Below the pieces are notes generated by a model. It searched no databases. It saw only the letters and a list, made by a program, of their open reading frames with translations, and was not told the origin of the DNA. A stretch of 64,000 bases of DNA. Origin: Eledone cirrhosa. Lineage: Eukaryota. Shown here one piece after another: positions 17,459 to 39,389 of the stretch (position 1 is the stretch's first letter; every line of letters begins with the position of its first letter). Both the position numbers and the translations under genes were made by a program. The DNA lies in NCBI GenBank assembly GCA_964016885.1, contig OZ024740.1, positions 177,072,001 through 177,136,000 of the forward strand, written 5' to 3'.

Positions 17459-17846
17459 TATAATATATATAATATATATATATGAATGTATATATAGTGT
17501 ATTTTGCAATACACTATGCTTAATTAAAAGCATTTTAAGACATTCCGCTATTGTTTTAAAGTAGTGAAAATGTCACTTACTTATATTTTCAGCAAACAAG
17601 GGGAGATGAGCTGACAGAGCTCTGTTTCGTACTTGTTGGTACTTATCAAAGCTCAGCACTCCTCCTGTCAGATGAAAATTATGAATGTTGGATTCTTATA
17701 GAATTCCAGTAATAATCAGGAACTGATTATACAGAGCGGTTGCCGGTCCAGCAAAAATTGAAAATTAGAATTGGTGCTCTAAAATAGCGATATATATATA
17801 TGAATGTATATATAGTGTATTTTGCAATAATAATAATAATAATAAT

Positions 17847-20800
17847 GATTTCATTTGTTAGCCACAAGGGCGGACATGTAGGTGACAATACAAAGACAGG
17901 GACAGTGAAGGTTTACAATAAGGTCGAGTAAAAGTGCACAATGGCAAGACTAATTTAACAATGAAAATATAAAAATATAAAATAAACTATGCATAAATAT
18001 AACAAAATAAATTCCCCTATAGGGGTGGAGGACCCAGGGGTGACTCGGGTACCCCACCAATCCTGAACCACCCTGCGCTTCTAGGGCACCCAGGGAGAGC
18101 ACCACTCTCCTCAAGTTAGCTACCCTATAGGCGCATGGTCAGAGTAGGCCCATTCACACGGGCAACTCTCGCCACATTCATCCACGTTTTAGCAAATGTA
18201 CTGGGGGGGGGGGGGCAGCACTTCTCTCTCCACCCTCACCTTCATTTCCAGGTGAAACTTAAAGAAGTTGATGAGGGATTGGCCGAAGAGTAAAGTGTTT
18301 GTCTTCAGTCCTGCTCTTCCTGACCTAAGGAAGGCGGCGGGTCGATCTTCACTATGGACTCGGTCGATAGCCGGATCCGTTACACACGCGACAGTAGCTG
18401 TTCGACATAACTCCACAAGTCAGTAATGCACGGACATTGGACAAGTGCGTGCAGAACGGTTTCGTCGCTCTGTGCGCAAATTTGGCAGGTCCGTCTTACA
18501 GCACTTCCGTGCCTCTAGAGTTTATCCCGAACCGGCAGTGCCACATGGTAGCATTGCCAAGCGAGGGATTTCTGGAAGTTGTCCATCGTCCCCGGCTCGA
18601 AAGTCCTCCGGTACAGACTGGTCAGTTCGACTTCGTCGAGGCCTAAAGCTTCTCCGAATGCGTCATCGCACTCGCACACCACTAATCCTCTATAGAACTC
18701 GAGAGTGGAAGTTCCACTGATCGCATTGCCCGCTTGGTAGAGAGCTGTGAGTGCCTGGCAACATTCCAGGTGCCAGTCACCAAGTCTCGGTCTCTTCTTG
18801 ACCTAGGACTGCAGGTCAGTCAAAGAAACGAGCTGCGGAAAGGCTCGTCTGATAAATGGCGAACACACCTGTTCACAGTTTATGAGATGTCGCAGCCTCA
18901 GAATATCTGGCATGCCCAGCTCTCCGCGTAGAGGGTGCTGGCAGCAGATGGACCGCCTCACCAACGGAACTTGTCGTTTCCAAAAGAATTTGAAGAGGAA
19001 CCCTTCCAGCTTGATGAGGCGCGGGCGGGGAAAAGGCACGGCGGTCAGGCGGTAGTAGATGACAGACACGATGTACGCATTCGCCACCTCCGCGCGACCT
19101 TTCAGTGATAGCTTCCTCCCAGCCCATTTTTCGGTGAGACTGGCTACTCTGCTCGTTACCTCCTCCCAATTCTTTTCCACCTGGAGGTCTGGTCCGAACC
19201 AAACCCCGAGCAACTTTACCGGTCCGTCTACCAGCGCCCTACGACGCTGTTGGACGGCATAGGCTTGCCTCTCCAAGTTCCAAGCTGCAAGCCCACCGAC
19301 TTTTCCGGGTTAAGTTTGGCTCCTGTCAACCTTTCATATTCCTTCAATAAGGATTTCCGAGGTGTCCAACACCATCACGGTGATGTTGTCCGCATTGGCC
19401 GACACCGCCTTTCCACGTCCCGGTTCGAGTCGGATGCCCTGCAACAGCTCCAGCTTCCGAAGGTAAAGGCTCGAGTGTCAATACGTATAGAAGGGAAGAG
19501 AGAGGGCACCCTTGACGGACCGATCGGAAAAGCCTAAATGGTTCCGAGAGATGGCCATTAACCTGAACACCGAGCGTGTGCCGCTGTGCATTGTAGCGAT
19601 ACAGCTTCTGAAGACAGGGCCGAAGCCAGCTACTTTGAAGACAAACTCCATATACCGATGGTCGACCCTATCGAATGCTTTCGATTGATCTAAATTGATC
19701 AGTGCCCCACCGCAGCTAGGTTTACAACCTACCCTCTCTATGATGTATCGCATGAGGTGGAGATTGTCGTGTATGGACCTGGCTGGGATTGTACAAGTTT
19801 GCGCCTCCCCAACCAAATCCTCGTCGACAAGCGTCAATCTCTTTGCTAACACCTTGAACAAAATCTTAAACTCTGAGTTGAGTTGAGTTATGGGCCTGAC
19901 GTTGTCTAATGTATCCCTCTTGTTCTCGTCTTTCCTTATCAGCGTCACAACTCCCCTGCTCACAGAACTGGGAATACTCCCATTCTGCTGCCAGTTGCAG
20001 TAGAACGCTTCGAGGAGATCGGAGAACAAGTCTGGCATATTTACGTAAAGCTCATAGAGCAGGCCATCCAAACCGGGTGACTTGCGCCTCATGCAACCGA
20101 CAAGGGCGACATGAATTTCGGCTGAAGTAATCGGCCATTCGAAGCGCTCAGCGTCGACCGTGGAGATGCGTGGCAAGCCGTCAAGGTAGGGACTGAAATA
20201 CGCTACTCTCTCTGACTCGCCACTCTCCCCGAACAACCGAACAAAGTGCTGGCGAAAGGTCTCACACATCCCCTTGGAATCGCTTATCTCGTGTCCATCT
20301 CGGTCCGCCAACCACGCTGCGCCTCCGCCACGCGGGCCCATCGAACAGCTTTGGTTCCCTCGTTTCTCAGCGCATGCGCTTAGCTCTGACAATGCAACTT
20401 TCGTGTTTCGCATTGAAGAAATGTTCTAATGCCATTCTCACCGCTAGCACATCAGTTGCAATGCCACTACAAATAGCCTCGTCTAACTTATCTACCAGCT
20501 CCCTCTCCTTTCTATTTTTTCTAACGCTAGTTCTTTGCTGAACTCTATCGAACTTACTCTAATCTCTCTTATGAGAGCCCCCCCCCCCCCCCCCACCATC
20601 TGTTGTTGATAATCCCCGCTGTCAATGTTTGCTTAACTAAATAGTTGACTCGGTCCCTGTAAGCCTTACGTGCCGGAAATGACATGTTCAGCTTCCAGTA
20701 ACCCCGTCCCAACCTACGCGTTTTATCTAGGTCGACTAAACAGATCACAAAATTGTGATCTGAATAGGCGACCGTTTTAAAAATTGGGCAGCCTACACTA

Positions 20801-23800
20801 TTTCAATCTATTTTCCTAATGAAGATCCTGTCTATATACGATCTAGATGACCTTATGCGTTTGGTCCACGTCAACACTGGGTAATTGGGGAAATCTAGTC
20901 GATACCTGTCAGACAGTTGGAACTGGCTGATCAGGTGTTTGAGGCTTTTGCACCCCCCGCTCCTATCTGCAACTCCCACACAATCCCAGCGTGCGTCTAA
21001 GATACCGTTCCAGTCCCCCGCTAACAGTAGAGGGCGAGACGTACCCAGAAAGGTTTCCAGGCGCCTAAAGAAGTCCGGTCGTCCGGCCTTAGTAGGGGTG
21101 TAGACGGCCAGCAGTCTAAAGGCACCACCTTCGCTACTGCTCACATCCAGGACCACCAACTTACCGTCTGGGTCCCGGAAGATCGACCTTACCTCGAGAT
21201 CCAGACCTTTCCTAAACAACACTGCCACTCCACCTCCCATTCCCGGCCTGCTAACAGATCGAAGATCTGATAGTCGTCGAAAATGGGGGCTAGTGCGCGC
21301 GTGTCGGAAATCCTGGTATCGATGACGGCAATCACATCCATTTCCAGATACCTGAGGTCGTTGACCAGGCGACCCTGCTTGCTTCCAGGATGACCCCAGG
21401 CCGCGAACATTTAAACTTCCTACTCTTAATATGGCCATGTTGACAAGCTAAAAGCGAGAGGGAAGGTTTACTTACCTCCCGAGGTATTGTGAAGGCCGGG
21501 TGGTTCGACCTCCATGGTTGGTGGGGTTTCTTTTCGGAACTCCTTTAAAAGTCTTGATGTGGGTTTCACGTTCGGGGTTCCCACGTCTTGAGGAAAGCTC
21601 TCTCGAATTTCTTTGTAGGAATTGAGCGACATTCGCACCAGAAGCAAATATTCTGGCACGCAAAATATGTTTAATCTCCCCCTCTGTTTGGATGTCCTCG
21701 ATTCGTGACAAGCACGAAGTTTTTAATATTTTGTTGGTGTGGTTTTATTTGTTTTCGTTTTGGTGACTGTGGTGGTGATGGTTTTGGTGGTGTTGTTTCG
21801 GGTATGTCTGTGTTTGTTGTGGTGTGGTGTCTGCAATTTCAGGTATCTGTGTGTTTATTTGTTCTTGTGTTTGTTGAGGTTGTTTGCGTTTCGGTGATAG
21901 TGGGGGTGGTGTTGATGTTATTGGGGAAGTGTTTGCGTTAGTGGTGTCTGTATTTGTTGTTGTGTATGTTTTTGTGTTTTGTTGGGGCTTTTTGGGGGCG
22001 AGGTTTCTCTTTTGTTTTTGGCACTTTGGGGTCTCCCTTCATCTTCACTGCTGGAAGACAAAGGGTCTGTGGCTGTGAGTGTATTAGTGTCTGTGAGTGC
22101 ATTTATTGTTGTGTCTATGTGTATAATTGGAGGTGTAGGGGGAGTGGGAGAGCTTTCCTCGTTTTCCCTTGGATTGGTTTCGGTGCTGGTGGTGCTCCGA
22201 CTGTTTTTGATGTTGGTGGGGTTACCCGTGTCATTGTTGGTGTTGTTTTAGGTGGTGGTGGTGGTGCAGCTTTCCGAGCTGACACTGGTGTTGGCAACAA
22301 AGGAGGTTTGCGACCCTCTGCATTTTTGAGCTGAGGGCATTTTTGAGCTTAATAGCAAGCTCCTCGGTTTTGAACAGTACCGAGATGGTACCGAACTGCT
22401 TGGCCCTTGTTTATACTCTATGTCACTTCCGATGCACTTCAAGGCAGCCTTGACCTCTGCTTGGCTGGCAAGTTCCACTTTGCGTGTCTGCATTGAAATG
22501 CATCGAAAGTACCCCGCCCTCCTTTGCATGGCCGCTATTGCCTCGTCCGGGAGCGTCAGGTTTGCCCAGGACTTCTCCCATTTAATTAATCTCCACACCT
22601 GGGCCAACTGTTCGTCTTTATCGCTAATATCAACATTCAATAAGCGCTTTGTTTTCGCTGCTGCCGCTGCAAATGTGGTGCCTCTGTTGCTCTTGTTGTT
22701 GGTGTTGTCGTTCTTGCTGTTGTTGGTGTTGTTGTTGTTTTGTTTGTTGTTGCTGTCTTTCTTTCTTTTTCTTTTGATTCACCTCAGGCGCCTGAGGATC
22801 CTCCTCAGAAGCGCTAGAGATGCGACTGGAAGACGGACTAATTCCTCTAAGGATGTGCCGAGTTGGTGATGGTATCTCTCGATCCCCAATGCAGGGCATC
22901 GTAGCCAGAGGTGTTCTGACGACTCCGCCTATTCACCGCAGAGTGGAGAGCAAAAGAATGTGGGGGGTTGTCTCACCGAATTTTTGCATGGCAGATTTGA
23001 CATCGGCGAATGGAGATCGCTGCAGGACGGATGGTAGCCACGGCATTATTCCCCCGACAGAAGCCACACACGAAGCCTTGAGGACTCTTTTTCTGTATTC
23101 GAGTCAGGCTGCTGCAGATCCTGTGGAAGATACGTCGGCAAGTCGGGCAGGAAATGGGCACGAAGTCTTGTCGGATCATCCTGAAACATCCCGCGCAGGA
23201 TGGGCCAGGCTTCAACTCGACATCACCCACTATGAGAAGTAACTTCCGGAGATGTAGGGCGGGTCTTACAGCTCCGGTTGTCGAAAAAAGAAAAACAAAA
23301 AAACGACGTGTCTCCCACGTCGCATCTCTGGGTGTATATAGATCCGGATTTGACAGATATCCTTTCGGGCATCCGACCGAGCACACAGGACGTCCATGAA
23401 GGCCGCCGCGCGAGTAGGTTCCGGATTCTGGTTTGTGCTCTGTCACCACAGGTGTTATTGTCAATACCGCCGCCGCTGTTGCTACCTCTATTGTTGTTAA
23501 ATGCATCAACATCATCCACTTCTCGACCGCTGCTTGATGACGAAGAGAACGAAATGGTTTTCGCCTGACATTTACTGTGTGGCGCTGACGAAACGAAAAA
23601 GGAAAAGGAAAAGGAAAAGGACGAAAAGGAAAGCGAGACTCGTCGCTGACAGCTGGATTATTATTGTGGAAGTATACACGTCGCAGGAATTCCCGTAAGT
23701 TTGCGATTTTTGTATAGTTCAATTGCGAACGTATTTTGGTGTTGTCTTGTGCAACATCTGCCATCTTCTTGCTTTGCTTCTTTTGGCGCTTCGGTTTTGC

Positions 23801-24261
23801 TTTGATCGTCTACGTCTGGTAAGATGCATATTTAGACGGTCTGGAGGTCGCATCATTAGGAGGTTGAAGTGATAATATCTTTTCTTCCATTATCAACATC
23901 TTTGACATGAGGGCATCAAGTTGAGTTTGCAAGTTAGCGTTTTTCAGTTCGATTTGGGTAAGGTTCAGTTTCAACCGCTCGCAATTACAATTACAGGTCA
24001 GTGACATAACATTGCGAGAAGTTTGGACAGCCGAGCGAGCTCTTGTAGTTGCAGGCATTATTGTGCTTAAAAATGTAAGCACGTTAACGGTTGGAGTTGA
24101 AGAAAAAGAGGGTATAATCCACAAATGCGTGTTTACATTGAGGCTGTCGGTGTTATTGTCGTTGTTGTTCTGAATTGTTGTGGTGGTGGTGTTGGTGGTG
24201 GCGGTGGTGGTGATGTCGTTTTGAGATGATACTCAGAAAAAAGAAAAACAGAATGGAAAAA

Positions 24262-24262
<1 letters not shown>
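17847..24262 (-). mobile_element. Old degenerate Tx1/L1-clade non-LTR retrotransposon (sister family of the two young copies)
   Basis: APE fragment MAILRVGSLNVRGLG..LAGDWNGILD (20803-21438). RT fragments KSPGLDG..RPITQLNSEFKIL..LINLDQSKAFDRVDH (19478-20413). ORF1 remnant FRCISMQTRKVELASQAEVKAAL. The 3' end abuts (AAT)7; the 5' boundary is uncertain. Confidence 0.85.
22973..23270 (-). pseudogene. 2A-like (StopGo) motif followed by a PHD-like finger
   Basis: LRKLLLIVGDVELKPGP (GDVELKPGP at 23201-23227), then CAGC..ISCPTCRRIFHRIC..FVCGFC (C4HC3) and the start of a second finger, CQIC. Confidence 0.65.

Positions 24263-24263
<1 letters not shown>

Positions 24264-24323
<60 letters not shown>
24264..24323. 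repeat. (AAT)n microsatellite between the old Tx1 and the Dong-like element
   Basis: About 20 AAT units seen directly. Confidence 0.95.
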
Positions 24324-26768
24324 GTTTGGACAGCTTGAAGGGAAAGAAAGAGGCAGCGACTTGATCCCTGAGGCGGAACAAACTAAAACATTCTGGAGAG
24401 GAATATGGGAGCAGGATGTTAAACATAATGACCAGGCAGTGTGGATTGAGACAGTACAGAAGGAGATTAGTGAACAGGCACACCAACAAACTGATTTGAG
24501 TATCACAGTTGAAACTCTTAAGGGGCAGGCCAAAACACTAACCAACTGGAAATCACCAGGCCCAGATGGTGTGCAGGGGTATTAGATTAAAAAATATAAC
24601 ATCCCTCCACCCGAAACTGACAACCATGTTCAATGACTGCTTGATGTCAGGTGAGGTACCAGAGTGGTTGACAAAAGGTACCACAGTTCTGATAATGAAA
24701 GACCGAATCAAGGGTAATGATGTTACCAACTATAGACCTATCACATGTCTGTCCGTAATGTGGAAACTGTTGACAAGCATTATGTCTGAGGAAATCTACC
24801 ATCACCTCCACACAAACAACTTGTTACCGGACGAACAGAAAGGATGCCGAAAGAAGTCACGTGGTACAAAGGACCAGTTACTTATTGATAAGATGGTAAT
24901 GAGGAATTGCAAGAGGAGACACACTGGTCTTGCCATGGGATGGATAGACTACAAAAAGGCATTTGACATGGTGCCTCATTCTTGGATCACCAAAAGCCTG
25001 GAGAACTTCAAGGTGGCAGATAACATCAGACAGTTGTTGGGCAAAAGTATGAAGTCCTGGGAAACAGAGTTAACATCAACTGGAGAATCCTTGGGAAGCG
25101 TGAAGAGCAAGAGAGGTATCTTCCAGGGAGATAGTCTGTCCCCTCTGTTGTTTTCCTTGCCCTGATGCCCCTGACCAGTGTACTGCGTAAAGTGAGAGCA
25201 GGATGCAGGTTGGGAAAGGGAGGGCTTACCATCAATCACCTCCTCTTCATGGACGATCTTAAGCTCTTCGGGAAGAGTGAGAAGGAGTTGGATGTGCTTG
25301 TTGACACTGTCCGTATTTTCAGCAATGATATATGTATGCAATTTGGTATTAGTAAGTGTGGAGTCATTGTGATGAAGAGGGGTAAGTTGAGCAGAAGTAA
25401 CGGAATCCCGGTACCAACAGGTGAGATGATAAAGGAAATTGACTCTGAAGAAGGATACAAGTATTTGGGTGTTCTGGAGGCCGATGACATCAAGAACAAA
25501 AAAATGAAGGAATTGATAAGAACTGAATACATTCGGAGAGTAAGGAGCGTATTAAAGTCACATCTGAACAGCAGAAATGCCATAAGTACAGTAAATTCCC
25601 GAGCTGTGTCTATTATTAGGTACAGTGCGGGAATTCTGAGATGGAATGTTGCTGAACAAAAAGAAATGGATAGGAAAACTAGGAAGCTATTGACTATCTA
25701 CAACAAGTTCCACAAGAGGAGTGATGTCGATAGACTCTACTTAAGGCGATTTGAAGGTGGAAGAGGTCTTATCAGCATAGAGGACTGTGTTCAGATCGAG
25801 AAAATCAACCTACACATATACGTGACTGATAGTAAGGAGCCAATGCTCAGAACTGTACTGAAGGCAGGTGACAATAGGCCAGGGGATGTCCAAGGAGGAA
25901 ATAACATCAAGGAGAAAGAGCAGCCTTCAGGAAAAATTCCTTCATAGTACCTTCTTTGAGAAAACTGAATTTAGAGATCCACAGACATGAAACTGGTTGA
26001 AAAGAGGAGACCTTAAAAAGGCTACAGAAGGAATGTTAATGGCTGCGCAGGAGCCGGCCCTCAAAACGAAGTGGTAGAAACACCATATTTACAAGGAGGA
26101 GGTTAGCCCACTGTGCAGGATCTGTGCAGAGAGAGAGAGGAGACTGTGGCTCACATTGTATCTGAGTGTAAACACCTAGCCCAGACTCACTTTAAGGGCT
26201 GGAGACATGATGTGATGGGCAGGGTGATCCACTGGCACCTATGCAAAGTAAACAATCTACCACATTCTGAGAAGTGGTATGAGCATAAGCCAGAGTCGGT
26301 GATAGAAAACGATCAGGTGAAGGTGCTGTGGGATTTTAGGATACAGACGGACAAGAAACTGGAATACAATAGACCTGACCTGGTGGTTGTGGACAAAGAA
26401 AAAAGATCGGGCCTGATTGTGGATGTGGCCTGCCCATTCGACACGAGAGTGCAAGAGAAGGAGAGGGAGAAAATTAACCGACACCAGGACTTAAAGTGGG
26501 AGGTAAAAAGGATTTGGAACTGCCATGAAGTCAAAGTGATCCCAATTGTCATAGGCGCACTAGGGACTATCTCAAAAAGTTTCCAGGGATGGTTAAAGAA
26601 AATTGGCCCCTTCACGCTTTTTGGAACGCTTCAAAAGGCATGCTTGCTGGGAACAGCAAGAACCCTCCGATACGTCCTGAAGAATATCTGAGGCTGCAGG
26701 TAGTGGCTTGATATTCATTTTAACAAACTTTCCAGTTAACTAACATCAATGACTGAGACTCAAAGAAC
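24324..26768 (+). mobile_element. Dong/R4-type non-LTR retrotransposon (RT plus restriction-like endonuclease), 5'-truncated, with stops and frameshifts
   Basis: NWKSPGPDGVQ; NYRPITCL..WKLLT; DYKKAFDMVPHSW; GIFQGDSLSPLLF; HLLFMDDLKL; CCHC remnant ETVAHIVSEC; RHD; RPDLVVVDK..IVDVACPFD..EKEREK (PD-(D/E)xK). Flanked by (AAT)n on both sides. Confidence 0.85.
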
Positions 26769-26807
<39 letters not shown>

Positions 26808-26809
<2 letters not shown>

Positions 26810-29800
26810 TTTCTTTATTAACCACAAGGGTTTACATAAAGTAGACATTAAGGACAGTGCAGGACAATGCAGGACGGTACAAATGGGCATTTCTGCGTGT
26901 AAAAAACAAAAACAGAGGATGTAACAAAAAATAACAATGAAAAATTCCCCAATAGGGGGCAGACTTCGGAGGGACATTTGTGGAGAAAGCCCAGTAAAAA
27001 GCCACAATGACCCTGACCACCAAGGCAAGTGCCCTCTCCCAGTTTTCCACCTTTAATTTACAGATATATACTCAGAGTAGGCCCATTCACTCGGGCCATT
27101 CTTGCTTCTCTCACCCATCTTTCAACAAAATGCTGGGAAGAGAGCACTTCCCTCTCTACTCTGATTTTCCTTTTCAAATGAAATTTGAAAAAGTCAATCA
27201 GAGCATCACCGAAGAGGTAAGTGCTCGTCTTCAGCCCTTTCAAACGTGTCCACCATACTATCTCTTTCACCATGGCCACCAGGCAGATACAAACTGCCTG
27301 CCCTTCCCGGCTAAAGGAGGAGGGCGGGGCAATCCTCACGATGGACTCAGATGATAGCCGGATCCGTCCTAAACGCGACAGCAGGTGTTCGACATAAACC
27401 CACAAGTCAGCAATTTTCAGACACTGGACGAGTGCGTGCAGGACGGTTTCGTCGCCCTGCGCGCATCTCGGACATGCCCGGCTGACGGCACCTCCATGCC
27501 TGTAGAGTTTATCCCGAACTGGCAAGGCTCCTCGGTAGCACTGCCAGGCCAGAGATTTCTGGAAGTTGTCCATAGGCCCTGGCCCGAAAGTTCTTCCGAA
27601 GAGATTGGCTAGTTGATTTTCGTCGACGCCTAGAGTTTCCCCAAGTACGTCGTCGCTCTTCCCCTCCACTAATCCTCTATAGAACGCCGAGGTGGAGTTT
27701 CCACCGATCACATTGCCCGATTGGTCGAGGGCTGTGAGCGCCTGAAAACATTCCAGTCTCCAGGCGCTCCCTCTCGGTCTTCGCTTGACCCAGGACTGCA
27801 GCTCCGTCAAGGAAACGAGCTGGGGAAAAACGCGTCTAGCAAACGGCGACCACACCTGATCACCGTCGAGGAAGAGGTGGAGATGTCGTAGCCTGAGCGC
27901 GTGCCTGCGCATCATCAGCCACGGCATGCCCAGCCCTCCACGTAGCGGGTGTTGACAACAGATGGACCGCCTGACCATCGGAGCACGTCCCTTCCACAAA
28001 AAGCGAAAGAGCAAACGCTCCAGCGCAGTCAGGCGAGGCTTAGGACAAGGTACGACGGTTAGGCGGTAGCAGATGACAGACGCGATGTACGCGTTAGCCA
28101 CCTCCGCTCGACCTTTCAGGGATAGCTTCCTCTCCGCCCATTTCTGGGTGAGAGAAGCCACCCTGCTCGTCACCTCGTCCCAGTTTTTGTCCGTCTGGAG
28201 GTCCGGACCGAATCAGACCGCTAGCAATTTAACCGGTCCGTCCGTCCAGCGTCCGACGACGCTGTTGGACGGCATGGACCTGCCTCTCCAGGTGCCGAGC
28301 TGCAGGCCCACTGACTTTTCCTGGTTGATCATTGCTCCTGTCACCGCTTCGTATTCTCTTAGTGTAGTGCCGATCGCCTCGATGTGTTTGGCGTTCGACA
28401 CCACTACGGTGACATCGTCCGCATATGCTGACACGGATCTTCCGCATCCTAGTTCGCGCGGGACGCCCCTCAACGTCTCCAGTTTGTGCAGTAATGGCTC
28501 GAGAGTCAATACGTACAAAAGGGACGAGAGAGGACATCCTTGGCGGACCGAGCGCATGATGTTGAACGGTTCCGAAAGGTGACCGTTCACTCTCACCACA
28601 GAGCAGATGTCGCTGTGCATGGCAGCGATCCAGCCTCTGAAGACGGGCCCAAAGCCAGCCGCCCTCAGGACTGCCGCTAGGTAACGATGGTCGACCCTAT
28701 CGAAAGCTTTCGACTATTCTAAATTGATCAAGGAACCACCCATGCCGGGTTCCCTAGCTACCCTCTCTACGATGTATCGCATGAGGTCTAGGTTGTCGTG
28801 GATGGATCTGTCGGGAATGGCGCATGTCTGCGCCTCTCCCACCAGATCACCAACGACAAGCGCCAACCTCTTTGCTAGCATCTTGGCCAAAATCTTGAAC
28901 ACTGTGTTTAGCAGAGTTATGGGCCTGAAATGATCTATGTTATCCCCCTTGTTCGAATCCTTTCTCAGCAGTGCCACCGCTCCTCGGCTCACAGAGCTGG
29001 GAATTCTCCCGTTCTGTTGCCAGTTGCAGTAGACGTCCTCCAAGAGGCCTCCGAACAAGTCTGGCATCTGTACGTAAAGTTCATAGGGCAGACCATCCAA
29101 ACCAGGCGATTTACCCCTTGTGCAGACAGTCATTTCCTCCCGTACTTCAGCGGCTGTTATCGGCTTTTCGCAACACTCTGTCTCAGTGGCTGAGAGCCGC
29201 GGCAGTCCGTCGAGGTAGACACTAAAGTCCATCCCTCGATCCGGCCCGCCACTGCCCCCGAACAGTTGAGCGAAGTGTCGCTGAAAAGCTTCACACATTT
29301 GCCCGGGATCGAGTAGCATGCGCCCGTCGTGGTCCACCAAGGACCGGATCGTGGCTTTGTTGCCACGACGCGCCTCCGCCACTCGGGCCCATTGAACGGC
29401 TTTCGTCCCCTCGTGTCTGAGAGCACGCACTCTAGCTCTGAAAACGCAGCCTTCGTGCTTTGCATTGAAGAATTGGTCAAGGGCCAATTTCGCCGCAGGT
29501 ACGTCGGTCGCGATGCCTTTGCAAAGCGCCTCGTCTAATTTTCTAACTAATTCTCCCTCTGCTCTATTTTTCTCTATTGCTAAAGCCTTACTAAACCTAA
29601 TGGACTCTATTCTAATTGCTCTTTTCAGAGCAAACCACCACTTGTTGTTGACGATGGCCCCCATCAACGCCCGCTTAACTAGTTCGCTAATCCGGTCTCT
29701 GTAGGCCTTGCGCGCTGGTAAGGACGCGTTTAGCATCCAGTAGCCGGGTCCTCGTCTATGAAGCCTATCTAAGTCAAGCACACAGATCACGAATTTGTGG

Positions 29801-32800
29801 TCCGTGTAGCTGACTGTCTTGAATTGTGGACAGCCTATGCTAGCCCTATCTATTTCCCTACAAAATACTCTATCTAGATGTGATCTGGATGACCCTATGC
29901 GATTTGTCCAAGTCCACATTGGCACATTCGGGAAATCCAATCGGTAGCTGTCAGACAGTTCAAAACGCCTGAGCAGGTCGGTGAGGCTCTTGCACCCTCC
30001 ACCCCTATCCGCTAATCCCACACAGTCCCAGCGTGCATCTAAGATCCCGTTCCAGTCGCCCACTAACACTAAAGAGCGGGACGTTCCAAGAAAGGTCTCC
30101 AGACGCCGGAAGAAATCAGGCCGCCCTGCTCCTGTCGGGGCATAGACGGCCACTAGCCTGAAAGCTTGTCCGTCTCCGCTGGTCACGTCCAGCACCACCA
30201 ACTTACCCTCTAGGTCCAGGAAGATGGCCCGTATAGCGAGATCTAAACCTCTCCGAAAAAGTACAGCAACTCTTCCCCCCGATCCAGGACGGCTGGGAGA
30301 TGCGTACACATCGTAGACGCCGAAGATCGCTGCGAAGGCCCGTGCTTCGGAGATTCTGGTCTCGCTGATGGCCACTACATCTATGTTTAGTGACCTGATG
30401 TCGTTGAGCAGGTGACTCTGCTTCCATGACGACCCCAAGCCACGCGCATTTATGCTGCCTATTCTGAGTGAGGTCATGTTTAAAATGGAGTGGAAAAGAT
30501 GGGAAAGACCACTTACCGTACTTTTCGTAGAGGAAGGATGGTTTCTCCATCCCTTTTCACTTGATTGTCTCGTGAAGGGACCGTTGAATCGTCCCTTCGG
30601 CTGGTCGTCGGCTCTTCTATTAGTATGTCCGAATATACTCTCCGGTTGAGAGTCCCTCCTAGGTCTCTGAAATCACCAACTGCGTTGGGGAATTTCGTTT
30701 TAATGTTTGTGTATTGTTTCTGTGCTATTTTTACCAGTCTTATGTTCGTTGGCGTTTTGATTGGTGCTGGTATTATGTAATCGTGCTGTGAAATGTCTGT
30801 GTGTTCAATTATGTAAGTCATTAGTTACTTGTTGTGTGTATTTATTGCCGTGCATTTGTTTTTCTGGGGGTGGGGTGTGGTTCTGCTATTTTCTTGTCGT
30901 TGTTGCTGGGTGTGTGTGTTTGGTTGTTGTGTTTGCGATGTTGGTGCTTGTGGTGGTGGTGTTGAAGTTGTTGTTGTTGTTGGCGGTGGGGTTGTCGCCG
31001 GTGGTGATGGTGGTGCTAGTGTGGGTGGTGATGATGTTGGTGGTGTTGCTGCTGTGAGTCTCTTTGCAGTAGCCTTTACCCTTTTTTCATTTCTTTCCTC
31101 CCTTTTCGAAGGCGACGATGCGCTGCCTCTGCGTTTGTACCTTCTTACGACCTTTTGCCATCCCTCTCCCACCTCACACTCCATGTATGATTCTGTGAGG
31201 TCGGGGAGGGTTACCAGCTCCACTCTTTCACTTGTTGTTGTTGGTGATGTTTGCAGTGGAGTCTCTGTTGCAGCTGCATTTGGTATTACTGTTGTTGTTG
31301 TTAATACTTCCACTGCTGCTGCTGGTCTTGATTTCTGTGGCGTGGGTATGGGTGCCACGAACCTATCCTTCCTGGTTGCCGCTTGTCCTGTTGCTGGTAG
31401 CCGTGGAGCCGGTTTCGGAGGGAAGGGGGTTTTCTCCTTTCTCAGGGTCTTCTCGTTGCAAAAGGCCCTGAGGTGAGTCTTCGATCCACAGCGAAAGCAT
31501 TTCGGGCGTTTCCCTTCAACACTTATGGGCAGTTGAGTGCCGTTATCGAAGTCTATCACATCCGGGATAGCTTCGATGCACTCCTGGTTGGTTTGTATTA
31601 ACATCTCAATGGAGGTGCCGACCCAATCTTCTATTACTTTTTTCTGTACTTGCAGTAGAGTTCTTTTGTCCTCGATTCCGACGAGGACAGACGCGGCCAG
31701 CCAAGAAGGGGCCATCCCGGGGGGGGGACGTGGGTCAGTTTGACCCTCACAATTTTTTGCCCGCAGTAGGAGGGCACCAGCACCATTTCCTCGCTCCTTA
31801 GGGTCACTAAGGATTGAGCCTTTGCCTCCTGGAGTGTGGCAAAAAGCACGTCTACGGTGGCATATTTCTTGCCTCGGGTGATATGCGTTTTCCGCTGCCA
31901 CACAGATTCTAAGGCTTTTTGTATTTGAGTCTCTGTGGCTCTTTCAACCCTACGGGATTTTGTGCTTACTGTACGGTACGTGACCGTACAATGCTGTTGG
32001 GTTTCGAAAAAATTTTCGGCTGCCTTGCAGGTTGCTCGGTGTCCGGTTTTCGTCACCATCTTCTTCGGTTCCTGTAATTCCTCATTTGTTATGAGGATGG
32101 TTTCCAGATTCTTTGCGATACCTCCAAACGAGATTGGTTTTTCTTTGCTGTTGTTGTTGTTGTTGTTGTTGTTGTCGTCAGAGCTGCTGTTACTTTTGTT
32201 GTTGCTGCAGGTACTACGACTACTACCGCCGCCGCTGTTGCTGTGGTTGTTGTTGCTGCTGCTGCTGTTGTTGTTGCTGTTGCTGCTAATGCTGTTGTTG
32301 TTTATGCTGCTGATGCTGTTGCGGCTGCTACTGTTGTTTTCCTTGTCACTGTTGCTGCTGCTGCTGTTATTACGGCTGCTACTGCTATTATTCATGACGT
32401 CAGACGAATGAAATGGGTTTTCGTATTTCCCGCACACCTTTTTCGTCGTTGTCGTCGTCGTGGAGAAATGTTGCACTCTTTGCACGTGATTTTTCTTTAC
32501 TGGCGTCGCTTGCGAAAGAGAAGGGAGGGAGAGAGACACATTTAGAGAAGGGAGGGAGAGAGACACATTTAGAGAAGGGAGGGAGAGAGACAATCTTCTC
32601 TCTGGTGTAGTGACGATTGAGGAAGAAGAAGACGGAATGAGTGGGAGTGACCTATGAAAATTCTTTTTCGTAGCCATGTTTTTTTTTTGTTTATAATAAA
32701 TATTGTGCACAAAACCCCAATAAGCGGTTATTTAACCCCGAAGGGCCAAATAACGAGCAGAAAGACCCCTCTCACGAGGAGGAGGGTGTTTTTGTCTACA

Positions 32801-32892
32801 ATTTGGTTAAAGTTTGAAACAATTTACAATTGTTATAGCGGTCAAAATTTACAATACCTTACAGAGCCGAGCCTCCGTCAACCATAGCATTC
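26808..32892 (-). mobile_element. Full-length Tx1/L1-clade LINE, copy A (inactivated)
   Basis: ORF1 is split (31634-32710 and 30825-31901) by +2 G in a homopolymer at ~31719-31727. ORF2 is split by nonsense changes near 28714 (TAG) and 28213 (TGA). Bounded by (AAT)13 and (AAT)17. Confidence 0.92.
27058..30477 (-). pseudogene. ORF2 of copy A: APE endonuclease, RT and C-terminal CCHC
   Basis: Collinear with the 1114-aa ORF of copy B. It retains the intact C-terminus ...RVEREVLSSQHFVERWVREARMARVNGPTLSIYL. Confidence 0.9.
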
Positions 32893-32945
<53 letters not shown>

Positions 32946-33269
32946 TTTCTTTATTAACCACAAGGGTTTACATAAAGTAGACATTAAGGACAGTGCAGGA
33001 CAATGCAGGACGGTACAAATGGGCATTTCTGCGTGTAAAAAAACAAAAACAGAGGATGTAACAAAAATAACAATGAAAATAACAATGAAAAATTCCCCAA
33101 TAGGGGGGAGACTTCGGAGGGACATTTGTGGAGAAAGCCCAGTAAAAAGCCACAATGACCCTGACCACCAAGGCACGTGCCCTCTCCCAGTTTTCCACCT
33201 TTAGTTTACAGATATATACTCAGAGTCGGCCCATTCACTCGGGCCATTCTTGCTTCTCTCACCCATCTT

Positions 33270-36200
33270 TCAACAAAATGCTGGGAAGAGAGCACTTCTG
33301 ATTTTCCTTTTCAAATGAAATTTGAAAAAGTCAATCAAAGCATCACCGAAGAGGTAAGTGCTGGTCTTCAGCCCTTTCAAACGTGTCCACCATACTATCT
33401 CTTTCGCCATGGCCACCAGACAGATAAAAACTGCCTGCCCTTCCCGGCTAAAGGAGGAGGGCGGGGCAATCCTCACGATAGACTCAGATGATAGCTGGAT
33501 CCGTCCTAAACGCGACAGCAGGTGTTCGACATAAACCCACAAGTCAGCAATTTTCGGACACTGGACGAGTGCGTGCAGGACGGTTTCGTCGCCCTGCGCG
33601 CATCTCGGACATGCCCGGCTGACGGCACCTCCATGCCTGTAGAGTTTATCCCGAACTGGCAAGGCTCCTCGGTAGCACTGCCAGGCCAGAGATTTCTGGA
33701 AGTTGTCCATAGGCCCCGGCCCGAAAGTTCTTCCGAAGAGATTGGCTAGTTGATTTTCGTCGACGCCTAGAGTTTCCCCAAGTACGTCGTCGCTCTTCCC
33801 CTCCACTAATCCTCTATAGAACGCCGAGGTGGAGTTTCCACCGATCACATTGCCCGATTGGTCGAGGGCTGTGAGCGCCTGAAGACATTCCAGATTCCAG
33901 GCGCTCCCTCTCGGTCTTCGCTTGACCCAGGACTGCAGCTCCGTCAAGGAAACGAGCTGGGGAAAAACGCGTTTAGCAAACGGCGACCACACCTGATCAC
34001 CGTCGAGGAAGAGGTGGAGATGTCGTAGCCTGAGCGCGTGCCTGCGCATCATCAGCCACGGCATGCCCAGCCCTCCACGTAGCGGGTGTTGACAACAGAT
34101 GGACCGCCTGACCATCGGAGCACGTCCCTTCCACAAAAAGCGAAAGAGCAAACGCTCCAGCGCAGTCAGGCGAGGCTTAGGACAAGGTACGACGGTTAGG
34201 CGGTAGCAGATGACAGACGCGATGTACGCGTTAGCCACCTCCGCTCGACCTTTCAGGGATAGCTTCCTCTCCGCCCATTTCTGGGTGAGAGAAGCCACCC
34301 TGCTCGTCACCTCGTCCCAGTTTTTGTCCGTCTGGAGGTCCGGACCGAACCAGACCCCTAGCAATTTAACCGGTCCGTCCGTCCAGCGCCCGACGACGCT
34401 GTTGGACGGCATGGACCTGCCTCTCCAGGTGCCGAGCTGCAGGCCCACTGACTTTTCCTGGTTGATCATTGCTCCTGTCACCGCTTCGTATTCTCTTAGT
34501 GTAGTGCCGATCGCCTCGATGTGTTTGGCGTTCGACACCACTACGGTGACATCGTCCGCATATGCTGACACGGATCTTCCGCATTCTAGTTCGCGCGGGA
34601 CTCCCCTCAACGTCTCCAGTTTGTGCAGTAATGGCTCGAGAGTCAATACGTACAAGAGGGACGAGAGGGGACATCCTTGGCGGACCGAGCGCATGATGTT
34701 GAACGGTTCCGACAGGTGACCGTTCACTCTCACCACAGAGCAGATGTCGCTGTGCATGGCAGCGATCCAGCCTCTGAAGACGGGCCCAAAGCCAGCCGCC
34801 CTCAGGACTGCCGCTAGGTAACGATGGTCGACCCTATCGAAAGCTTTCGACTGATCTAAATTGATCAAGGACCCACCCGTGCCAGGTTCCCTAGCTACCC
34901 TCTCTACGATGTATCGCATGAGGTGGAGGTTGTCGTGGATGGATCTGTCGGGAATCGCGCATGTCTGCGCCTCTCCCACCAGACCACCAACGACAAGCGC
35001 CAACCTCTTTGCTAGCACCTTGGCCAAAATCTTAAACTCTGTGTTTAGCAGAGTTATGGGCCGGAAATTGTCTATGTTATCCCCCTTGTTCGGATCCTTT
35101 CTCAGCAGTGCCACCGCTCCTCGGCTCACAGAACTGGGAATTCTCCCGTTCTGTTGCCAGTTGCAGTAGACGTCCGCCAAGAGGCCTCCGAACAAGTCTG
35201 GCATCTGTACGTAAAGTTCATAGGGCAGACCATCCAAACCAGGCGATTTACCCCTTGTGCAGCCAGTCATTGCCTCCCTTACTTCAGCGGCTGTTATCGG
35301 CTTTTCGCAACACTTCGCCTCAGTGGCCGAGAGCCGCGGCAGTCCGTCGAGGTAGACACTAAAGTCCATCCCTCTACCCGGCCCCCCGCTGCCCCCGAAC
35401 AGCTGAGCGAAGTGTCGCTGAAAAGCTTCACACATTTGCCCGGGATCGAGTAGCATGCGCCCGTCGTGGTCCACCAAAGACCGGATCGTGGCTTTGTTGC
35501 CACGACGCGCCTCCGCCACTCGGGCCCATTGAACGGCTTTCGTCCCCTCGTGTCTGAGAGCACGCACCCTAGCTCTGACAACGCAGCCTTCGTGCTTTGC
35601 ATTGAAGAATTGGTCAAGGGCCAATTTCGCCGCAAGCACGTCGGTCGCAATGCCTTTGCTAAGCGCCTCGTCTAATTTTTTAACTAGTTCTCCCTCTGCT
35701 CTATTTTTCTCTATTGCTAAAGCCTTACTAAACCTAATCGATTCTATTCTAATCGCTCTTTTCAGAGCAAACCACCACTTGTTGTTGACGATGGCCCCCG
35801 TCAACGCCCGCTTAACTAGTTCGCTAATCCGGTCTCTGTAGGCCTTGCGCGCTGGTAAGGACGCGTTTAGCTTCCAGTAGCCGGGTCCTCGTCTATGAAG
35901 CCTATCTAAGTCAAGCACACAGGTCACGAATTTGTGGTCCGTGTAGCTGACTATCTTGAATTGTGGACAGCCTATGCTAGACCTATCTATTTCCCTACAA
36001 AATACTCTATCTAGATATGATCTGGATGACCCTATGCGGTTTGTCCAAGTCCACATTGGCACATTCGGGAAATCCAATCGGTACCTGTCAGACAGTTCAA
36101 AACGCCTGAGCAGGTTGGTGAGGCTCTTGCACCCTCCACCCCTATCCGCTAATCCCACACAGTCCCAGCGTGCATCTAAGATCCCGTTCCAGTCGCCCAC

Positions 36201-36614
36201 TAACACTAAAGAGCGGGACGTTCCAAGAAAGGTCTCCAGACGCCGGAAGAAATCAGGCCGCCCTGCTCCTGTCGGGGCATAGACGGCCACTAGCCTGAAA
36301 GCTTGCCCGTCTCCGCTGGTCACGTCCAGCACCACCAGCTTACCCTCTGGGTCCAGGAAGATGGCCCGTATGGCGAGATCCAAACCTCTCCGAAAAAGCA
36401 CAGCAACTCCTCCACCCGATCCAGGACGGCTGGGAGATGCGTACACATCGTAGCCGCCGAAGATCGGTGCGAAGGCCCGTGCTTCGGAGATTCTGGTCTC
36501 GCTGATGGCCACTACATCTATGTTTAGTGACCTGAGGTCGTTGAGCAGGTGACCCTGCTTCCATGACGACCCCAAGCCACGCGCATTTATGCTGCCTATT
36601 CTGAGTGAGGTCAT
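33270..36614 (-). CDS. ORF2p: APE endonuclease, reverse transcriptase and Cys-rich C-terminal domain (1114 aa)
   Basis: SINARGL..VAISET..VYAP..VGDWN..SYLDR..TDHK (APE). SPGLDG, RPITLLN, DQSKAFDRVDH, VRQGCPLS, AYADD (RT). CPRC..ETVLHALVQC. An 11-nt deletion near 33298 frameshifts the extreme C-terminus. Confidence 0.95.
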   Translation of the reverse strand: MTSLRIGSINARGLGSSWKQGHLLNDLRSLNIDVVAISETRISEARAFAPIFGGYDVYASPSRPGSGGGVAVLFRRGLDLAIRAIFLDPEGKLVVLDVTSGDGQAFRLVAVYAPTGAGRPDFFRRLETFLGTSRSLVLVGDWNGILDARWDCVGLADRGGGCKSLTNLLRRFELSDRYRLDFPNVPMWTWTNRIGSSRSYLDRVFCREIDRSSIGCPQFKIVSYTDHKFVTCVLDLDRLHRRGPGYWKLNASLPARKAYRDRISELVKRALTGAIVNNKWWFALKRAIRIESIRFSKALAIEKNRAEGELVKKLDEALSKGIATDVLAAKLALDQFFNAKHEGCVVRARVRALRHEGTKAVQWARVAEARRGNKATIRSLVDHDGRMLLDPGQMCEAFQRHFAQLFGGSGGPGRGMDFSVYLDGLPRLSATEAKCCEKPITAAEVREAMTGCTRGKSPGLDGLPYELYVQMPDLFGGLLADVYCNWQQNGRIPSSVSRGAVALLRKDPNKGDNIDNFRPITLLNTEFKILAKVLAKRLALVVGGLVGEAQTCAIPDRSIHDNLHLMRYIVERVAREPGTGGSLINLDQSKAFDRVDHRYLAAVLRAAGFGPVFRGWIAAMHSDICSVVRVNGHLSEPFNIMRSVRQGCPLSSLLYVLTLEPLLHKLETLRGVPRELECGRSVSAYADDVTVVVSNAKHIEAIGTTLREYEAVTGAMINQEKSVGLQLGTWRGRSMPSNSVVGRWTDGPVKLLGVWFGPDLQTDKNWDEVTSRVASLTQKWAERKLSLKGRAEVANAYIASVICYRLTVVPCPKPRLTALERLLFRFLWKGRAPMVRRSICCQHPLRGGLGMPWLMMRRHALRLRHLHLFLDGDQVWSPFAKRVFPQLVSLTELQSWVKRRPRGSAWNLECLQALTALDQSGNVIGGNSTSAFYRGLVEGKSDDVLGETLGVDENQLANLFGRTFGPGPMDNFQKSLAWQCYRGALPVRDKLYRHGGAVSRACPRCAQGDETVLHALVQCPKIADLWVYVEHLLSRLGRIQLSSESIVRIAPPSSFSREGQAVFICLVAMAKEIVWWTRLKGLKTSTYLFGDALIDFFKFHLKRKIRSALFPAFC

Positions 36615-36649
36615 GTTTAAAATAGAGTGGAAAAGATGGGAAAGACCAC

Positions 36650-38764
36650 TTACCGTACTTTTGGTAGAGGAGGGATGGTTTTTACATCCCTTTTCACTTG
36701 ATCGTCTGGTGAAGGGACCGTTGAATCGTCCTTTCGGCTGGTCGTCGGCTCTTCTAAGAGAATGTCTGAGTATACTCTTCGATTGATGGTTCCTCCTAGG
36801 TCCCTGAAATCACCAACTGCGTTGGGGAATTTCGTTTTAATGTTTGTGTATTGTTTCTGTGCTATTTTTAGCAGTCTTATGTTAGTTGGCGTTTTGATTG
36901 GTGCTGGTATTATGTAGTCCTGTTGTGAAATGTCTGTGTGTTCAATTATGTAAGTCATTAGTTTCTTGTTGTGTGTATTTATTGCCGTGCATTTGTTTTT
37001 CTGGGGGTGGGGTGTGGTTCTACTATTTTCTTGTCGTTGTTGCTGGGTGTGTGTGTTTTGTTGTTGTGTTTGCGATGTTGGTGCTTGTGGTGGTGGTGTT
37101 AAAGGTGTTGTTGGCGGTGGTGATGGTGGTGCTAGTGTGGGTGGTGATGGTGTTGGTGTTGTTGCTGCTGTGGGTCTCTTTGCAGTAGACTTTACCCTTT
37201 TCTCATTTCTTTCCTCCCTTTTCAAAGGCGACGATGCGCTGCTTCTGCGTTTGTGCCTTCTTACGACCTTTTGCCATCTCTCTCCCACCTCACACTCCAT
37301 GTCTGATTCTGTGAGGTCGGGGAGGGGTACCAGCTCCACTCTTTCACTTGTTGTTGTTGGTGATGTTTGCACTGGAGTCTCTGTTGCAGCTGCATTTGGT
37401 ATTGCTGTTGTTGTTGTTAGTATTTCCACTGCTGCTGCTGTTTTGGATTTCCGTGGAGTGGGTATGGGTGCCACGGGCCTATCGTTCCTGGTTGCCGCTT
37501 GTCCTGTTGCTGGTAGCCGTGGAGCCGGATTCGGAAGGAGGGGGGTTTTCTCCTTTCTCAGGGTCTTCTCGTTGCAGAAGGCCCTGAGGTGAGTCTTCGA
37601 TCCACAGCGAAAGCATTTCGGGCGTTTGCCCTCAACACTTATGGGCAGTTGAGTGCCGTTATCGAAGTCTATCACATCCGGGATAGCTTCGATGCACTCC
37701 TGGTTGGTTTGGATTAGCATCTCAATGGAGGAGCCGACCCAATCTTCTCTTACTTTTTTCTGTACTTGCAGTACAGTTGTTTTGTCCTCGATTCCGACGA
37801 GGACAGACGCGGCCAGCCAAGAAGGGGTCATTCCGGGGGGGACGTGGGTCAGTTTGACCCTCACAATTTTTTGCCCACAGTAGGAGGGCACCAACACCAT
37901 TTCCTCGCTCCTTAGGGTCACTACTGATTGGGCCTTTGCCTCCTGGGGTGTGGCAAAAAGTACGTCTACGGTGGCATATTTTTTGCCTCGGGTGATGTGC
38001 GTTTTCCGCTGCCACACAGATTCTAAGGCTTTTTGTATTTGGGCCTCTGTGGCTCTTTCTACCCTACGGGATTTTGTACTTACTGAACGGTACGTGACCG
38101 TACAGTGCTCTTGGGTTTTGAAAAAATTTTCCGCTGCCTTGCAGATTGCTCGGTGTCCGTTCTTTGTCACCATCTTCTTCGCTTCCTCTAATTCCTCATT
38201 TGTTATGAGGATTGTTTCCAAGTTTTTCGCAATACCTGCAAATGAGATTGGTTTTTCTCTGCTGTTGTTGTTGTCGTCAGAGCTGCTGGTACTTTTGTTG
38301 TTGCTGCAGGTACTACGACTACTGCCTCCGCCGCTGTTGCTGTGGTTATTGTTGGTGTTGCTGCTGCTAATGCTGTTGTTGTTTATGCTGCTGGTGATGC
38401 TGTTGCGGCTGCTACTGTTGTTTTCATTGTCACTGTTGCTGTTGTTATTACGGCTGCTACTGCTATTATTCCTGACGTCAGACGAATGAACTGGGTTTTC
38501 GTATTTCCCGCACACCTGTTTCGTCGCTGTCGTCGTCGTCGTGGAGAAACCTTGCACGCTTTGCACGAGACTTTTCTTTTCTTTCGTCGCTTGCGAAAGA
38601 GAAGGGAGGGAGAGAGACACATTTAAAGAAGGGAGGGAGAGAGACAATCTTCTCTCTGCTGTAGTGATGATTGAGGAAGAAGAAGACGGAATGAGTGGGA
38701 GTGACGTATGAAATTTCTTTTTCGTAGCCATGTTTTTTTGTTTAAAATGAAATTTTGGGTACAA
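36650..38764 (-). CDS. ORF1p: gag-like nucleic-acid-binding protein with a zinc knuckle (704 aa; likely start MATKK)
   Basis: CFRCGSKTHLRAFC (CX2CX4HX4C), N/S-rich and P/T-rich low-complexity linkers; lies 35 nt upstream of ORF2. Confidence 0.88.
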   Translation of the reverse strand: MYPKFHFKQKNMATKKKFHTSLPLIPSSSSSIITTAERRLSLSLPSLNVSLSLPSLSQATKEKKSLVQSVQGFSTTTTTATKQVCGKYENPVHSSDVRNNSSSSRNNNSNSDNENNSSSRNSITSSINNNSISSSNTNNNHSNSGGGSSRSTCSNNKSTSSSDDNNNSREKPISFAGIAKNLETILITNEELEEAKKMVTKNGHRAICKAAENFFKTQEHCTVTYRSVSTKSRRVERATEAQIQKALESVWQRKTHITRGKKYATVDVLFATPQEAKAQSVVTLRSEEMVLVPSYCGQKIVRVKLTHVPPGMTPSWLAASVLVGIEDKTTVLQVQKKVREDWVGSSIEMLIQTNQECIEAIPDVIDFDNGTQLPISVEGKRPKCFRCGSKTHLRAFCNEKTLRKEKTPLLPNPAPRLPATGQAATRNDRPVAPIPTPRKSKTAAAVEILTTTTAIPNAAATETPVQTSPTTTSERVELVPLPDLTESDMECEVGERWQKVVRRHKRRSSASSPLKREERNEKRVKSTAKRPTAATTPTPSPPTLAPPSPPPTTPLTPPPQAPTSQTQQQNTHTQQQRQENSRTTPHPQKNKCTAINTHNKKLMTYIIEHTDISQQDYIIPAPIKTPTNIRLLKIAQKQYTNIKTKFPNAVGDFRDLGGTINRRVYSDILLEEPTTSRKDDSTVPSPDDQVKRDVKTIPPLPKVR

Positions 38765-38944
38765 AACCCCAATAACAGGTTATTTAACCCCGAAGGGCCA
38801 AATAACGGACAGAAAGACCCCTCTCACGAGGAGGAGGGTGTCTTTATCAACAATTTGGTTCAAGTTTTAAACAATTTACAATTGTTTTAACGGTTAAAAA
38901 TTACTATACCTTACAGAGCCGTGCCTCCGTCAACCATGGCATTC

Positions 38945-38998
<54 letters not shown>

Positions 38999-38999
<1 letters not shown>

Positions 39000-39129
39000 T
39001 TTTCTTTATTAACCACAAGGGTTTACATACAGTAGACATTAAGGACAGTACAGGACAATACAGGACGGTACAAATGGGCATTTCTACGTGTAAAAAAACA
39101 GAGGATGAAATAAAATAACAATGAAAAAT
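38999..39129 (-). mobile_element. Tx1 3'-end stub (heavily 5'-truncated copy of the same family)
   Basis: TTTCTTTATTAACCACAAGGGTTTACAT..GTAGACATTAAGGACAGT...GGACGGTACAAATGGGCATTTCT matches 26808-26940. Confidence 0.9.
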
Positions 39130-39136
39130 AATAATA

Positions 39137-39343
39137 ATACAAAAGATAGTACTAATGGGAACTGCCCATATACTAAGGAAGATTCTGTCAATATAAGTAT
39201 ATCACAGGTCTAAACACCTAAAGAGGCATGTGTGTGTATGTATGTTCTTTCTTGAACATGGCCGACCTTGTTGTCTCTTGAGGTCACTGGTTGTGACTTG
39301 GTGATAACTCGTATGAACATAAAGCAAGATAAATGCAGCTGTA

Positions 39344-39389
<46 letters not shown>
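39137..39389 (+). mobile_element. 3' stub of a second Dong/R4-type element with a (TAA)n tail
   Basis: 39137-39196 translates IQKIVLMGTAHILRKILSI*, homologous to LQKACLLGTARTLRYVLKNI* of the element at 24324-26768. Followed by a 3' UTR hairpin and (TAA)15. Confidence 0.75.

Follow-up and report, generated by a model that had tools for sequence, protein, structure and literature searches.

Several retrotransposons of the Tx1 clade insert into microsatellites: Kibi is found in (TC)n, Koshi in (TTC)n and crocodilian Tx1 families in (TTCC)n or (TTTC)n (PMC4494074 and PMC3812793, in the portions available), and Dong, of the R4 clade, is given a TAA microsatellite target in the available part of PMC3812793. 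Within octopuses, L1-Tx1 and Dong-R4 elements and tRNA-Core short interspersed elements (SINEs) have been counted, with no targets given in the extracts surveyed (including PMC3531059, PMC10294476, PMC9115989 and PMC5786205), and Table 1 of PMC13282606 lists both Dong-R4 and L1-Tx1 among the recently active elements of Octopus vulgaris. Here we analyse a 64,000-nucleotide stretch (hereafter, the window) of the octopod Eledone cirrhosa (assembly GCA_964016885.1, contig OZ024740.1, positions 177,072,001 to 177,136,000 of the forward strand), in which long interspersed elements (LINEs) lie end to end between (AAT)n tracts. The array includes two full-length copies, A and B, of a young Tx1-type family, a decayed copy of an older subfamily and two Dong/R4-type elements. 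Our reading is that the young Tx1-type LINE targets AAT in a fixed orientation, shares its sites as hubs with Dong-type elements and has a SINE partner, and we hold this reading as a whole to be quite probable; the flanks, polarity, target duplications, clustering and intact open reading frames (ORFs) on which it draws are observed directly.

AAT at both ends of a Tx1-type family

Across the 3.0-Gb genome, 5,990 sites exactly match a 37-nt stretch from the 3' end of the young family, and the family comprises some 6,000–7,000 copies, nearly all of which adjoin AAT in one orientation. Flanks were scored in the first 80 of 100 listed places, taken by position regardless of flank: AAT adjoined the 3' end in 79 of the 80, and at least three units, (AAT)≥3, did so in 72. 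None abutted (TA)3. The window holds 85 (TA)≥6 tracts, and an earlier note on this DNA had pointed out that none of the LINEs there sits in the far more abundant (TA)n. Genome-wide, the text before the 3' end reads ANNAAT at 6,775 places and BNNAAT at 388. On the 5' side, (AAT)≥3 is present in all 44 full-length copies, which fall into two types with unrelated 5' ends (B in 24 copies, C in 20), and in each of the 30 best matches to the 5' end of copy B. The 3' flanks (72/80) and the full-length 5' flanks (44/44) both exceed the 20% of flanks by which target preference is recognized in the available part of PMC4494074.

Because a full-length RNA could carry an AAT head, truncated copies are the real test of a target. 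After removal of four of 36 rows that were recombinant, internally duplicated or actually full-length (L060, L097, L103, L112), there were 32 true 5'-truncation junctions, and 14 of these have (AAT)≥3, followed in nine cases by unique DNA or Dong sequence; the background frequency of (AAT)≥3 is 0.05–0.6% at ordinary positions, rising to 1.4% at loci rich in hubs. The old subfamily has (AAT)≥3 at 25 of 30 3' ends and (AAT)≥4 at 9 of 20 truncation points. Where copies lie in imperfect or unique DNA, target duplications of 16, 11 and 7 nt were found, together with further ones of 14, 13–16 and about 19 nt (one mismatch), all of which end in (A)TAAT; in a second set, exact duplications of at least 10 nt occurred in 2 of 9 loci versus 0 of 72 controls, the other 21 of 30 loci having run off.

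That copies outside the tracts have duplications ending in ATAAT argues that AAT is the target. The possibility that AAT is a mere 3' tail was rejected on these duplications and on the AAT found 5' of isolated and truncated copies. The earlier note had proposed an AAT-specific Tx1 lineage and had named as one objection that isolated copies might have (ATT)n only as a tail: Once both flanks of the sampled copies were tabulated, this objection failed, and flanks and duplications support the proposed lineage, the motif cut being apparently a short ATAAT followed by a purine and not a long repeat.

Three further patterns were seen at these flanks. Subfamily C (L059, L061, L062 and others; 20 of the 80 loci) combines the ORF2 and 3' end of copy B with a different ORF1 and 5' end, i.e., a module swap with the same target. 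At L085, L099, L100, L101 and L112 a recurrent element end, ...CGTCCGCTTAGACC or ...CGTCCGAACAGATC, stands before AAT tracts and probably constitutes the 5' end of a further Tx1 subfamily. And the AAT tracts of hubs often turn into (AAG)n, with some insertions placed exactly at the AAG/AAT boundary (L062, L071, L073, L091, L092, L107, L329).

Shared hubs and a proposed partner SINE

Neighbouring Tx1 ends are separated by gaps of at most 10 kb in 26 of 99 cases (1.6% expected), 24 of them on the same strand and many at a distance of one element length; L117–L119 and L077/L078, being tandem repeats, do not count as independent cases. The Dong/R4-type elements belong to the same neighbourhoods. 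The 3' end of the larger one in the window, element A, has 2,333 exact matches in the genome. Of 31 such ends, 12 have a young Tx1 end no more than 10 kb away, where 0.79 would be expected, and 11 of the 12 are in the opposite sense; a Tx1 3' end directly follows the Dong end in 9 of 30. All 30 Dong 3' ends run into AAT-like triplets and an AAT tract precedes 10 of the 13 5' junctions that are visible, placing TAA repeats at both ends. This genome-wide clustering makes the array in the window typical rather than unique.

Element A (24324..26768, plus strand) has reverse transcriptase (RT) matches, and its C-terminus weakly resembles the R2 restriction-like endonuclease (E 0.009, motif RPDLVV..VDV), so that the plus-strand elements combine an RT with a C-terminal PD-(D/E)xK endonuclease insofar as this weak R2 match is a guide. 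From their motifs and target we take these elements to be of the Dong/R4 type. The hub shared by Tx1- and Dong-type elements in opposite senses, which the earlier note had described for the window, thus recurs across the genome. Two of its further claims also agree with the literature consulted: Dong does target TAA repeats, as the plus-strand elements here appear to (PMC3812793), and the use of one target by two unrelated endonucleases has a precedent in Keno and Utopia, both in U2 (PMC4494074, PMC4640811).

A SINE of about 186 nt, whose middle we take to be CORE-like, recurs at AAT tracts, where it is oriented like the LINE, and a single 37-nt variant of it has 25,977 matches (i.e., some 26,000 copies or more). 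The copy at 8825..8933 (minus strand) is 5'-truncated and has a 13-nt target duplication ending in AATAAT; other copies in the window lie near 1690, 4810, 10481 and 52960. Among the first 30 copies, in which sites were scored, TAAT precedes the SINE end in 30, a purine follows in all 18 duplications scored outside pure tracts, and duplications of at least 10 nt occur in 18, versus 34 of 866 mismatched pairs. SINE and LINE therefore have the same target motif and similar duplication lengths (8–20 nt ending in TAAT for the SINE, 7–19 nt ending in ATAAT for the LINE).

The two also have a 3' tail with a conserved stem-loop in common. Copy B bears ACC-CUUGU-GGU (32957..32967, minus strand) 13 nt from its end, and the loop CUUGU recurs 13–14 nt from the end on stems that differ in a compensatory manner: the young LINE has ACC/GGU, the old LINE GCC/GGC and the SINE GGC/GCC. 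These stems are 3–4 bp long, the first search forced the loop and the second did not, and the 80 young ends had been selected by this very sequence. SINE-LINE pairs are usually recognized by such a common 3' stem-loop or tail (PMC3747384, in the part available). Given the stem-loop and a site of TAAT followed by a purine in both, a tRNA/CORE-type SINE is likely mobilised by the AAT-targeting Tx1-type LINE, and the motif cut would be a short ATAAT before a purine, which (AAT)n offers at the highest density. The broader proposal, that an AAT-cutting Tx1 drives the expansion of octopod tRNA-CORE SINEs by way of the CUUGU stem-loop and this short motif and, with Dong, builds self-renewing AAT hubs, is one that we favour only slightly. 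A second, longer SINE family (47914–48115, plus strand) has a similar hairpin and an AGAAA..ATT end, with ATAATAAT before it.

The array and competing explanations

The earlier note saw six insertions between seven (AAT)n tracts. The tracts, strands and families stand; the count does not, since the old Tx1-type copy contains a nested element. The seven tracts are all of the (AAT)≥4 tracts in the window and lie on one strand, with no (ATT)n among them. The left remnant of the target tract, (AAT)7 (17826..17846, plus strand, as are all spacers), is followed by the decayed old copy (17847..24230, minus strand; about 73% identical to A and B over ORF2), which lacks some 490 nt of its 5' end and terminates in a 32-nt filler (24231..24262, plus strand). 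Beyond a spacer of 19–20 units (24264..24323) comes element A of the Dong/R4 type, which is 5'-truncated and broken in both RT and restriction-like endonuclease, and then (AAT)13 (26769..26807). Copy A (26808..32892, minus strand; full length, both ORFs broken, 94% identical to copy B) and copy B (32944..38944, minus strand; full length, 98.8% identical to its nearest sampled relative) are separated by (AAT)17 (32893..32943). After (AAT)18 (38945..38998) there remain a 128-nt Tx1-type 3' stub (38999..39126, minus strand; 90% identical to A and B), (AAT)4 (39127..39138), a 3' stub from another Dong/R4-type family (39139..39344, plus strand), which reads ...LMGTAHILRKILSI to its stop, and (TAA)15 (39345..39389), which is what remains of the tract on the right. 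In the four Tx1-type 3' ends the bases after AAT are GATTTC at 17847, 26808 and 32944 and GTTTTC at 38999, in agreement with the single minus-strand phase, (AAT)n then G(A/T)TTTC, that the earlier note had read for young and old families alike, and both elements of the restriction-like endonuclease type are indeed on the plus strand.

The nested repeat (about 22720–24130, minus strand), with a PHD-like reading frame, is in GTT/GGT-rich sequence and is not bounded by AAT, and the insertions in the array therefore number seven. That it might be a part of the old Tx1 element was rejected, because it occurs elsewhere without Tx1 and other Tx1 copies join directly across its position. It is an independent repeat with 168 candidates and two modules, situated in GTT/GGT-rich repeats at several loci, and it carries the motif GDVELKPGP, which we take to resemble 2A peptides.

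The filler at the 5' junction of the old copy is an inverted copy (30/32) of 39464..39495 (minus strand), which lies in the right flank, 75 nt from the array. A pattern that fits both copies matches the 3.0-Gb genome at exactly two places, both in the array; because it was built from these two copies, more diverged relatives may exist. This genome-unique filler connects an inner junction to the right flank, which suggests that the flank adjoined the old copy before about 15 kb of later insertions. The old copy was likely first, and the later elements would have accumulated in the tract on its 5' side. A direct repeat of about 40 nt (17470–17512 and 17790–17830) immediately precedes the array on the left, and its second copy extends into the first AAT tract. 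Outside the array, transposase-like, GIY-YIG (Penelope-like) and RT remnants lie on the minus strand at 43087–44916, about 45900–46900, 51428–52447 and 60468–61016, the DNA-transposase-like frames having been called by eye with no Pfam hit.

We propose that specificity resides in the APE domain and that insertion proceeds by target-primed reverse transcription from a 3' end in ...ATAAT; sequence-specific nicking by APE is suggested by the target duplications. The endonuclease would nick the AAT-reading strand after ATAAT and before a purine, the nicked 3' end would prime cDNA synthesis from the RNA end that bears the stem-loop, and a second nick would generate a duplication of about 10–20 nt. 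Each insertion would split one tract into two new targets, and since the element's own 3' junction (ATAAT followed by GAT) fits the motif again, this would explain head-to-tail runs with spacers of 6–9 units. Dong/R4-type elements presumably nick the ATT strand, entering the same tracts in the opposite sense, in which case both families would feed the same sites. Part of the 3' tract may come from the RNA.

Several observations weigh against this account. (AAT)≥3 is missing from the 5' junction of 18 of the 32 truncated copies, five or six of which abut Dong internal sequence directly and two of which abut (GAA)n (by eye), so that later deletions or loss of the target must be assumed. Several full-length copies in imperfect tracts (L057, L088, L092, L124) show no duplication beyond 3–8 nt. 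In 18 of 19 young copies (20 were compared, one of them without a 3' end) the 3' tract is longer than the 5' tract (medians of 15 and 8 units), which requires either that nicking favour the tract's far end or that the RNA bring a tail. Moreover, the SINE lies mostly in unique DNA and the LINE mostly in tracts, a difference that one endonuclease alone does not explain, and the last 24 nt of the two agree at only 15 positions, a level reached by 4 of 5,978 element windows.

If targeting were instead led by the RNA, transcripts would extend into downstream (ATT)n and their (AUU)n tail (and head) would anneal to AAT, leaving only a loosely specific role for the endonuclease. The roughly twofold excess of 3' over 5' tract length in young copies, the far closer confinement to tracts of the LINE than of the tail-less SINE, and the occurrence of 5' AAT in every full-length copy but in under half of the truncated ones would all follow. 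Tail pairing, however, cannot produce the purine at +1, which is downstream of the nick; nor does it sit well with the 388 copies in which the second AAT unit is absent at the 3' junction, or with the copies with clear duplications (chosen for their imperfect flanks), in which no extra AAT stands between target and element. We regard RNA-led targeting as unlikely. Less likely still is that insertion occurs at any short ATAAT and that tracts and hubs became enriched later, through selection against 6-kb insertions and tandem duplication by unequal exchange: The SINE sites in mostly unique DNA and the near-identical tandem units that have the same tract interruption (L065/L066, L117–L119, L077/L078) are what this model predicts, but short truncated LINE copies (75–430 nt) are flanked by tracts as well, copies of 99% identity are already all in tracts, and the members of the array in the window differ by 6–27% and belong to different families.

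That the array is an artefact of assembly, which chained repeat copies through AAT tracts, seems to us highly improbable. In the public data (four public runs, window positions 20300–40200) neither a contig nor a read extends across the array, but its members differ in family and age, the same types of junction occur at many loci, and the genome-unique filler ties the inner 5' junction to the right flank. Insertion targeted to AAT by the endonuclease of the Tx1-type family remains the explanation that we prefer.

Proteins, clade and comparison with known systems

In copy B, ORF1 (36650..38731, minus strand) encodes 693 aa with a CX2CX4HX4C knuckle evident in its sequence, and ORF2 (33270..36614, minus strand) encodes APE, RT and zf-RVT (Pfam Exo_endo_phos, RVT_1, zf-RVT). 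The earlier note had offered copy B as an intact source of a candidate repeat-specific APE domain, and this is true of the domain (35892..36614, minus strand) but not of ORF2 as a whole, in which a short deletion shifts the frame at the C-terminal end (1114 aa, versus 1139 aa in intact copies). The catalytic columns of APE are invariant in the alignment, and an alignment-based model of the domain (predicted local distance difference test 96) has the human L1 endonuclease as its nearest fold (Z 29.4, root-mean-square deviation 2.2, 228 residues aligned). Both ORFs are kept in 7 of 44 full-length copies in the genome sample (L066 and L127 are examples of intact copies), and several copies are more than 99% alike, indicating that the family is recent.

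All of the domains expected of a Tx1 element are present, i.e., an N-terminal APE, an RT, a C-terminal CCHC and a zinc knuckle in ORF1. The nearest named relatives are proteins of Argonauta hians (56–67% identity), and RT trees unite copy B, the old subfamily and Argonauta in a clade with 100% support, with a sister group at about 40% identity. A quick tree places this clade and its sister group with U2-inserted, Keno-type elements at 98%; a more careful one gives 81/83 to a wider group that includes U2-inserted elements and a TX1-named protein, with deep nodes and bootstrap unsettled, and neither contained vertebrate L1, Kibi or Koshi. Protein match scores are higher for the TX1-named protein (308 bits) than for human L1 (182 bits). 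We therefore call membership of the Tx1 clade likely rather than firm.

No named Kibi, Koshi or Tx1 protein was returned by a second homolog search, and searches of NCBIfam with the ORFs and of Rfam with the SINE gave nothing useful. A metagenome scan yielded distant relatives only (24–39% identity), with no evident AAT-flanked element at any of 80 loci; the TAA run at one of them (L262) lies about 1.2 kb beyond the reading frame. At L230, L231 and L248 distant relatives adjoin U1 and U5 small nuclear RNA (snRNA) genes, and in Patella caerulea a relative of 29% identity is represented by 11 or more genes that neighbour one another on a single contig (cluster P0029), which suggests another tandem site-specific array.

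The family extends the known targets of Tx1 endonucleases to an AT-rich sequence, and its intact and very young copies provide material for studying the recognition of short repeats by an APE domain. SINEs are the largest class of repeats in octopus-type genomes (PMC8967140, in the part available), and the proposal of a partner LINE for an abundant SINE makes its expansion testable. AAT hubs account for local stacks of LINEs, and most AAT microsatellites of such genomes would be element junctions, a matter of some consequence for marker design and assembly.

Human L1 offers the nearest solved fold to the APE domain, at about 20% domain identity. It cuts at the step between T and a purine, with a loose preference for TTTT/AA, and has a poly(A) tail. 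Keno, the Tx1 element of U2 snRNA genes, is represented among the related RTs by the U2-inserted L223 and L225 (27–31% identity); it has another target, and Keno-type copies end in poly(A), whereas the AAT family has none. Dong differs from the Tx1 family in its restriction-like endonuclease and in its opposite orientation. The likeness of our SINE to the octopus CORE-SINEs OR1 and OR2 lies in its presumably CORE-like middle. OR1 and OR2 have been named (PMC4824008, PMC4758252) and other mollusc CORE-SINEs have been assigned to L2 or CR1, and the surveyed extracts of the literature name no partner LINE for OR1 or OR2 and describe no sharing of sites between Dong and a Tx1 family.

An AAT-targeting Tx1, or a Tx1 partner of an octopus SINE, was likewise not found in these extracts (Repbase, Dfam and closed journals lay outside the search), which is weak evidence of novelty; tentatively, the AAT family may be described as an AT-rich variant among the known microsatellite-targeting Tx1 elements. 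The closest parallel to the proposed SINE-LINE pair is crocodilian SINEU, which was assigned to the Tx1-Mar LINE by a common target preference (PMC4494074, in the part available): SINEU has snRNA heads and a transposon target, whereas the SINE in Eledone is of the tRNA/CORE type and has a 3' stem-loop and a short DNA motif in common with the AAT-targeting LINE. Kibi, Koshi and the crocodilian Tx1 families resemble the AAT family in being APE elements of the Tx1 clade that insert into microsatellites. The TCC/TTC targets listed for Kibi and Koshi in the earlier note are correct as to (TTC)n for Koshi, and the available literature gives (TC)n for Kibi. Compared by target rather than by sequence, those families occupy pyrimidine repeats in fish and crocodilians, and the family described here occupies (AAT)n, or ATAAT, in an octopod.

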